Below are positions 57,359-58,010 of a stretch of DNA of 64,000 nucleotides, in pieces. The DNA lies in contig CAXHJY010000010.1 of NCBI GenBank assembly GCA_964016885.1, positions 1 to 64,000 on the forward strand, read 5' to 3'. Source of the DNA: Eledone cirrhosa (taxonomy: Eukaryota). The translations under genes were made by a program, and so were the position numbers. The stretch's first letter is position 1; each line of letters opens with the position of its first letter. The notes beneath the pieces are model-generated. The model worked only from the letters and a program-made list of their open reading frames with translations. It ran no database searches and was not told the origin of the DNA.

Positions 57359-58010
57359 TGGTCTGTAATGCGAAGAAATACCTATGATGGCTAGTAGACC
57401 ACTGATGACGGATATTCCTGGCTTCTATTTCTAATTCTTCATTTATTATATATATCCTATTTGCAATAACACAGCTCGCCATTTTTCATTCATATATGCT
57501 TTCCCCTTCGCTGTGACCTGTCTTTTTCTCTTCCCTTACTGCTATCCTCTTTCTCTCTCCTTCTCCCTCTTACTTTCACTCACCCCTTCTTCTAGTCACC
57601 CTCTCTCGGCTAGCCTCTTCCTCACACTTTCACTCACTCACTCTCTGCTACTCACCTTCTCTCTCACTTCCTCCATCGTCCCACACCGTACGAGATTCTT
57701 TCCTCGCTCACATCCGCACGGTCAAGATGTGTTTTTGCCTTCTCGTCAATATTCGCAAAATCTTATGTTCAAAATGAATTATTGACTTGATTTTCTCATT
57801 TTTTCCTCTCTTTACGTTGCCTCACCATTCGTGTTTGTTTACCAGTCTCTCTTTCTCCACCCAACTCTTTTTATCCCAATAAGTTAATTTAGTTATTGTA
57901 TCGCCCTAGCTGGAGGTATATGGTCTGTAATGCGAAGAAATACCTATGATGGCTAGTAGACCACTGATGATGCATATTCCTGGCTTCTATTTCTAATTAT
58001 TCATTTATTA
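57359..58010 (+). mobile_element. Non-coding element with a ~90-bp direct terminal repeat (57359-57450 / 57921-58010) and a pyrimidine-rich body
   Basis: Near-identical repeats lie 562 bp apart, each followed by (TA)n. Confidence 0.8.
57906..57975 (+). ncRNA. Candidate pseudoknotted, strand-permuted hammerhead ribozyme with kink-turn
   Basis: GGTAT-A^TGGTCTG, ATGCG-AA-GAA-ATACC and TAGACCA-CTGATGA-TGCAT form three complementary stems around the core. Confidence 0.65.

Follow-up and report, generated by a model that had tools for sequence, protein, structure and literature searches.

How did a repeat in the genome of Eledone cirrhosa come to begin at the predicted cut of a hammerhead ribozyme whose parts stand in a rearranged order? 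The locus lies on contig CAXHJY010000010.1 (assembly GCA_964016885.1), of which positions 1 to 64,000, here termed the window, were analysed. The non-circular permutation of an RNA fold was first reported in 2023, with the S-G-C order coming only from metatranscriptomes (Eckert et al. 2023, PMC10085705); that paper reports no SGC ribozyme from genomes of known organisms, and its SGC ribozymes carry CGAAA together with a stem II of 5 bp, mostly G-C. In the literature searched, mostly outside subscription journals and repeat databases, that paper alone described type-SGC hammerheads, and we found no report of an SGC ribozyme in a eukaryote or retroelement.

The reordered hammerhead motif is real and not due to chance; it belongs to an animal repeat of high copy number, and one insertion of this repeat starts at the predicted cut. 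The features are collected in Table 1.

Table 1. Coordinates of the element, its putative ribozyme parts and neighbouring coding remnants (window positions)
Feature	Coordinates	Strand	Basis or remark
Broken Penelope-like coding remnant	48304-48702	+	weak GIY-YIG match, E 0.005
Broken Penelope-like remnants	51915-52577, 60753-60962	-	no Pfam match
vWA-like coding stretch, weak	53703-54359	-	weak match
Shared TA, 2-nt microhomology	57357-57358	+	repeat comparison; corresponds to U16.1 and H17 of the ribozyme
Upstream repeat	57359-57455	+	ribozyme copy that lacks the stem III strand and the leader; begins at the predicted cut
Unit body	57456-57905	+	non-coding, pyrimidine-rich; multi-copy in aligned reads
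Leader strand CUAGCU	57906-57911	+	6/6 pairs possible with 57951-57956; predicted competing helix
Block S	57914-57920	+	stem III strand AGGUAU (57914-57919) and cleavage nucleotide A57920; predicted cut between 57920 and 57921
Downstream repeat	57921-58017	+	terminal redundancy of 97 nt, into the TA tract
Stem I strand UGGUCUG(U)	57921-57928	+	partner 57956-57963
Candidate stem II strand AUGC	57930-57936	+	includes three extra bases preceding GAAA
Block G	57937-57945	+	GAAA (57937-57940) and stem III strand (A)UACCU (AUACCU, 57940-57945)
Segment GGCUAG	57951-57956	+	partner is the leader or 57980-57985
Block C	57957-57970	+	stem I strand UAGACCA and CUGAUGA (57964-57970)
Extra pyrimidine, G10.1 and candidate stem II strand	57971-57975	+	
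Segment following stem II	57980-57985	+	can pair with 57951-57956; topology as in PMC10085705
(TA)n tract, A/T only	58003-58248	+	element 3′ end
vWA-like coding stretch	62462-63181	-	E 2.6e-36

The hammerhead motif

The downstream repeat carries the hammerhead blocks in the order S-G-C, a non-circular permutation. A pairing check gives 6 bp for stem III and 7-8 bp for stem I, both with at least 4 bp next to the core. The invariant core is intact: CUGAUGA and GAAA are complete, U57919 stands in the U16.1-A15.1 position and A57920 is H17. CUGAUGA is followed by one extra base and then G, and the cut lies 13 nt from C57933 (C11.1, then GAA). The six bases before the second stem I strand can pair 6/6 with those after stem II, which would give a possible I-II helix.

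A scan for the S-G-C order that ignored stem II gave one match in the window, in the downstream repeat only. With the same descriptor, whose spacings were set after the motif was seen, 38.4 Mb of locally shuffled window sequence gave 11 matches at 4/4 pairs, a single match when stem I had at least 6 and stem III at least 5 pairs, and none at 7/5. The S-G-C motif is real, far beyond chance.

Rfam returned nothing at gathering score over the whole window and five chance-level matches in 57200-58100. Two other assignments were tried and rejected. A hammerhead of type I, II or III in cis fails because GAAA is absent after CUGAUGA and there is no room for a stem I hairpin past stem III. The twister class came up through UCUGUAAUGC, which resembles rows of the twister alignment; it was rejected by eye (no P2 partner, no P4 hairpin) and by Rfam.

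Stem II and the leader helix

The stem II region reads C-GAA-GAAA, with three extra bases ahead of GAAA. An unbulged stem has a single pair, U57971-A57936; allowing a 3-nt bulge gives four (57972-57975 with 57930-57933), the second of which becomes G-G in the upstream copy and in ~99% of the depth of sequencing runs X1 and X2, where C57973 is replaced by G. The published SGC descriptor asks for CGAAA and for G10.1-C11.1 plus at least two pairs; stem II lacks these, and the motif is therefore not filed as a type-SGC member. Published descriptors and Rfam would miss it. Since natural hammerheads with a one-bp stem II and a pseudoknot are active (PMC3088659), self-cleavage despite the minimal stem II is plausible by analogy; a U-U first pair of stem II also occurs in natural hammerheads (PMC3088659).

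The leader offers a second partner to the I-II segment. Duplex energies are -8.2 kcal/mol for the leader helix and -7.3 kcal/mol for the I-II helix, and both draw on one set of six bases. Over 57900-58000 the MFE fold is stem III extended by the leader helix rather than the ribozyme, and in this model, which has no pseudoknots, it is weaker than that of 197 of 200 shuffles. By its predicted geometry the leader helix would block stem I, which suggests a switch. Speculatively, it might form first and hold stem I closed until displaced by 57980-57985.

The repeat pair and its start at the predicted cut

Positions 57357-57455 and 57919-58017 are direct repeats of 99 nt, 97% identical and 562 nt apart, differing at three sites (57409/57971, 57411/57973 and 57437/57999). 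As the original prediction had it, they match only from TA-TGGTCTG onward: the flanks show no alignment 5′ of the shared TA, and CTAGCTGGAGGTA is missing before the upstream repeat, whose left flank does not restore stem III. The upstream, leaderless copy cannot form stem III; the downstream copy is complete. No third repeat copy is present in the window. The TA, which could be target sequence as was suggested, is common to the left flank and the element and leaves the start ambiguous by 2 nt (57357-57359).

The cut-to-cut distance of 562 nt with no credible ORF was likewise confirmed by an ORF scan and Pfam. In the unit 57359-57920 there is no ATG ORF of at least 25 aa on the plus strand, and the 116-aa stop-to-stop frame 57435-57785 has no Pfam match; the minus strand has one 51-aa ORF, which would span the junction were the unit closed into a circle. 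A tRNA search found none. The downstream repeat continues into the A/T-only tract, likely the target or an expanded tail, and no target-site duplication was seen by eye at the element ends. The anatomy is thus a 562-nt unit with 97 nt of redundancy (1.17 units), no ORF and a 3′ end in TA repeats. Two contigs, one each from X1 and X2 and so from one sample, run from the left flank to 57386, 28 letters beyond the junction and just below the 31 letters required for bridging; they confirm the junction weakly.

The left-flank end (57349-57358) resembles the element's own AT-rich tail (57994-58012), a likeness that could reflect an endonuclease preference for tail-like targets. On the plus strand, 13 nt before the insertion, a pyrimidine tract ending in CAG (57331-57345) looks like a splice acceptor and may be a chance occurrence, because the nearby gene is on the minus strand.

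The upstream repeat starts at the predicted cut. This evidence is independent of the fold, as was claimed from the outset: if starts were uniform the coincidence would have a chance of ~3/562, and of 1 in 38 if 2-nt microhomology were required, both figures applying to one insertion event. At least 2 nt of microhomology is available at 38 of the 562 possible starts, and the element has TATA at the cut.

Copies of the family in reads

Four runs were placed on 57150-58008 at 80% likeness. X1 and X2 are from one sample, from which the window itself may derive, and X5 is from another sample and study. Placement gave 3023 contigs for X1, 2688 contigs for X2 and 3904 reads for X5. X4 (organism B, share 0.07) was considered as a second host and rejected, having only four records, three of them on the element at depth 2.

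In X1 and X2 the flank is covered at a depth of 5-45, the upstream repeat at 15,000-41,000 and the body at up to 236,000. Summed contig depth is no copy number; its ratio to the flank contig is ~18,000 for the core and 68-600 for the body bins with least depth. The family has hundreds to thousands of copies. Depth is as high directly 5′ of the downstream cut, which places the leader within the family. Part of the body, 57585-57671, is several times deeper than the rest (the 236,000 of X1 falls here) and has many loose ends; it is therefore probably shared with other families.

No variant falls in the invariant core among the 40 listed of 256 rows, which taken alone is unremarkable. In stem I the listed variants preserve pairing: G>T at 57927 with T>A at 57957 would be compensatory, and 57961 C>T gives a wobble, all unphased. 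At 57392 (equivalent to 57954) T>C turns a U-G pair of the I-II helix into C-G and breaks one leader pair, and 57945 T>A, which about half of the X5 reads carry, disrupts the final pair of stem III. Two minority variants are common to both repeats: G at 57365/57927 and T at 57415/57977. Several contig joints, each in a single contig, return from the tail to the body in the manner of tandems.

In X5 the match is lost before 57914 in 136 reads and after 57970 in 181, that is, at both ends of the core. Reads that match only 57914-57970 belong, to judge by their sequence, to a diverged subfamily and not to insertion ends, because the loose part before 57914 resembles family sequence. The loose-end consensus rows, drawn from different runs, hint at a version with a changed leader, middle segment and 3′ partner that would retain 6/6 and 5/6 pairs. 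These rows are unphased, and the middle one comes from four contigs. Covariation of the leader and I-II helices is not significant (15% and 50% under a transitions-only null, jointly 9%), and we treat it as a lead, not as support.

As to where other copies start, no loose end falls at 57359 or 57921 among the 23 listed of 642 rows. One of the 12 listed joints with inserted letters lies near the cut, an X2 contig passing from 57819 to 57361 via two letters. X5 coverage is 270 reads at 57912 and 678 at 57927; the diverged subfamily accounts for 136 of the difference, and the remaining rise could be further subfamilies or true 5′ ends. Two apparent signs of starts were rejected. The depth jump at 57353-57381 is uninformative because family reads must end at the unique flank. 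The ends of X5 molecules fall at AATT sites or at variants that create AATT and are therefore library ends.

Type I hammerheads and Penelope-like remnants nearby

Eight minimal type I hammerhead matches occur in the window, at 3163, 38597, 46438 and 47650 on the plus strand and at 35475, 38478, 45886 and 59859 on the minus strand; several are in inverted pairs, as in Penelope-like pseudo-LTRs. Near-misses lie at 3410, 26833, 37634, 39172 and 39441 (minus) and at 47396 and 50258 (plus). A fold-back at 53005-53217, from the family of the 46438 match, has a minus arm that starts at the predicted type I cut (53068) with a 2-nt overlap, and a plus arm that starts 37 nt downstream of the predicted cut. 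The other listed type I family fragments in the window start away from the cut. At 45429-46745 a non-coding, hammerhead-bearing family of ~450-550 nt lies in tandem and inverted copies between TA tracts, with a diverged copy at 50044-50554.

The Penelope-like remnants of Table 1 are broken. The two minus-strand pieces we take, from their appearance, to be parts of an RT and an endonuclease. Within the 64 kb there is no RT and GIY-YIG element with the same terminal repeat.

Comparison with known systems

The motif shares with type-SGC hammerheads (HRIMA-1 and the SGC variants; PMC10085705) the S-G-C order, CUGAUGA, GAAA, the UH dinucleotide and stems I and III. It also shares the extra base and then G after CUGAUGA, and the 13 nt from cut to C11.1, with rows of the HRIMA-1 alignment (PMC10085705). 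A possible helix of 6 predicted bp lies where published SGC ribozymes have the I-II helix. Unlike them it has three extra bases before GAAA, a stem II of 1 to 4 bp and a predicted competing leader helix; its stem I does not resemble theirs in sequence, and it lies in a genomic DNA repeat.

Loose motif scans gave 46 loci in metagenomes, 3 + 0 + 1 in viral contigs and 7 + 5 in GTDB. None of these 62 loci passes the SGC scan, and none matches the element by BLAST. Recurrent 42-nt scan matches are protein-coding and include a KPEGKRPLxRPRRRW-like stretch of the kind seen in RTE-type LINEs.

Animal non-LTR retrozymes are, like the element, non-coding and high-copy with one hammerhead per unit, with signs of tandem arrangement, no PBS or PPT and Penelope-like remnants in the same genome (Cervera and de la Pena 2020, PMC7229834; Li et al. 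2026, 10.64898/2026.07.22.740005). They differ in having type I hammerheads, units of ~150-450 bp and highly self-paired circles (PMC7229834; 10.64898/2026.07.22.740005), whereas the element has 562 nt and the S-G-C order and is not self-paired (z = 0.17, with 56 of 100 shuffles folding as well). Tested feature by feature as a retrozyme, the element is a non-coding, multi-copy unit, gives no match in the type I scan and lacks the highly self-paired monomer.

With the Penelope pseudo-LTRs (Cervera and de la Pena 2014, PMC4209133) the element shares a partial-tandem terminal repeat containing a hammerhead, an extra base between A9 and G10.1, and a 3′ end in (TA)n; of the features of a Penelope-like element, the partial-tandem terminal repeat with its microsatellite 3′ end is present. 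The pseudo-LTR hammerheads are minimal type I forms whose stem II is a hairpin and whose stem III is tiny and palindromic, and they are thought to work as dimers (PMC4209133); the element, in contrast, has a stem III of 6 bp, a non-circular order and no RT-endonuclease ORF attached. The element works like a non-LTR retrozyme or Penelope pseudo-LTR derivative; it is not filed as a retrozyme, because its ribozyme type and its fold differ.

Origin of the insertion

We lean towards regarding this copy as a non-autonomous Penelope-type insertion, reverse-transcribed from an RNA with a ribozyme-made 5′ end. A tandem copy would be transcribed on the plus strand, and the ribozyme is predicted to cut after AUA, leaving nearly the whole ribozyme on the downstream RNA. 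A Penelope RT-endonuclease acting in trans would nick a TA-rich target and prime inside the RNA ~97 nt downstream of the next ribozyme, uncut or rejoined. The 97 + 562 nt would then be copied, with run-off at the ribozyme-made 5′ end, and the cDNA would join the target through the shared TA. The product would be a unit with 97 nt of redundancy, a leaderless upstream copy and a complete downstream one. The simplest path is a linear RNA in which one ribozyme has cut and the following one has not, and Penelope RT is known to start within its template and to prefer AT-rich targets (PMC11167929).

The original prediction, of a cDNA of an RNA whose 5′ end was made by this ribozyme, is upheld in part. 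The start at the cut, the high copy number and the Penelope-like anatomy speak for it, and the single insertion event and the non-canonical stem II against it. Its description of the insert as retrozyme-like fits the non-coding, multi-copy unit; the ribozyme type, the 562-nt size and the absence of a self-paired fold do not agree.

The alternative that survives best, which we consider unlikely yet deserving of weight, is an ordinary 5′-truncated partial tandem of Penelope type: the cDNA would have stopped and annealed at a TA that by chance supplies the UA of the cleavage triplet, with the ribozyme vestigial or uninvolved. Penelope-like copies are often 5′-truncated partial tandems in TA repeats (10.1101/2021.04.23.441226), and the TATA at the cut together with the 38 in 562 starts offering microhomology would suit such an event, as would the weak stem II in most family sequence and the fragments of type I families in the window, most of which start away from cuts. 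In an Anolis Penelope element cleavage is dispensable for insertion in vitro, and no RNA reads end at the cut (PMC11167929), a result that favours truncation with microhomology. This account nevertheless requires the 1-in-38 coincidence, and the intact core and stems I and III, with diverged reads that match the core only, argue for selection on the fold.

Less probable still is a retrozyme proper, in which a 562-nt RNA circle, or an RT jump from the 5′ to the 3′ end of a monomer, would be copied slightly more than once, the end coming from re-cleavage. The geometry of a unit plus redundancy agrees, animal retrozymes do form circles (PMC7229834), the tail-to-body joints look like those of tandems, and the minority variants shared by the repeats look as if they came from one stretch. 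A homogenised tandem, however, explains the shared variants equally well, the unit is not self-paired, and a closed circle offers no reason for a stop at the cut. That the insertion is a miniature LTR-type (TRIM-like) element, its TG start set by an integrase and its match to the cut incidental, is very improbable: there are two 97-nt direct repeats around a non-coding body, both starting with TG, yet by eye a CA end and a target-site duplication are missing, no primer-binding site follows the upstream repeat, the purine run before the downstream repeat has only 5 nt and the 3′ end fades into (TA)n, and the contig joints suggest tandems.

Beyond the insertion from a cleaved RNA, which remains our preferred reading of this copy, there is the wider proposal that a Penelope-type family of thousands of copies has adopted an active S-G-C hammerhead that makes its 5′ end, with a minimal stem II and leader gating, the first in eukaryote chromosomal DNA. 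We advance this tentatively, as somewhat short of probable. If true, it would be a genomic, high-copy animal example showing that retroelements use the S-G-C form. Such an example would escape Rfam and published descriptors, so more may be hidden. Its many natural copies would supply variants for covariation, and the family would let the origin of the permutation be asked beside ordinary type I hammerheads. It also makes testable the open question of what hammerheads do in Penelope-like elements: because this ribozyme is predicted to be cut at its front, copies of cleaved RNA should keep a recognisable start, and a histogram of 5′ ends would read cleavage in vivo.

Setting in the window

The window is AT-rich, dense in TA and CA microsatellites and in broken retroelement frames. 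The 562-nt element, on the plus strand, lies between two minus-strand vWA-like stretches and is therefore probably intronic and antisense to a vWA-like gene. A homologue search with the vWA sequence returned a single unnamed protein. Directly to the right of the TA tract is a 69-nt direct repeat (58342-58410 and 58608-58676, 90% alike, 266 nt apart); each copy contains CTGAGGA, and motif scans found no hammerhead in either. A 14-bp tandem array of about nine copies occupies 55815-55992, and the minus strand at 27863-29784 has broken frames, RT and integrase-like, that match DUF7047 (E 3e-10).
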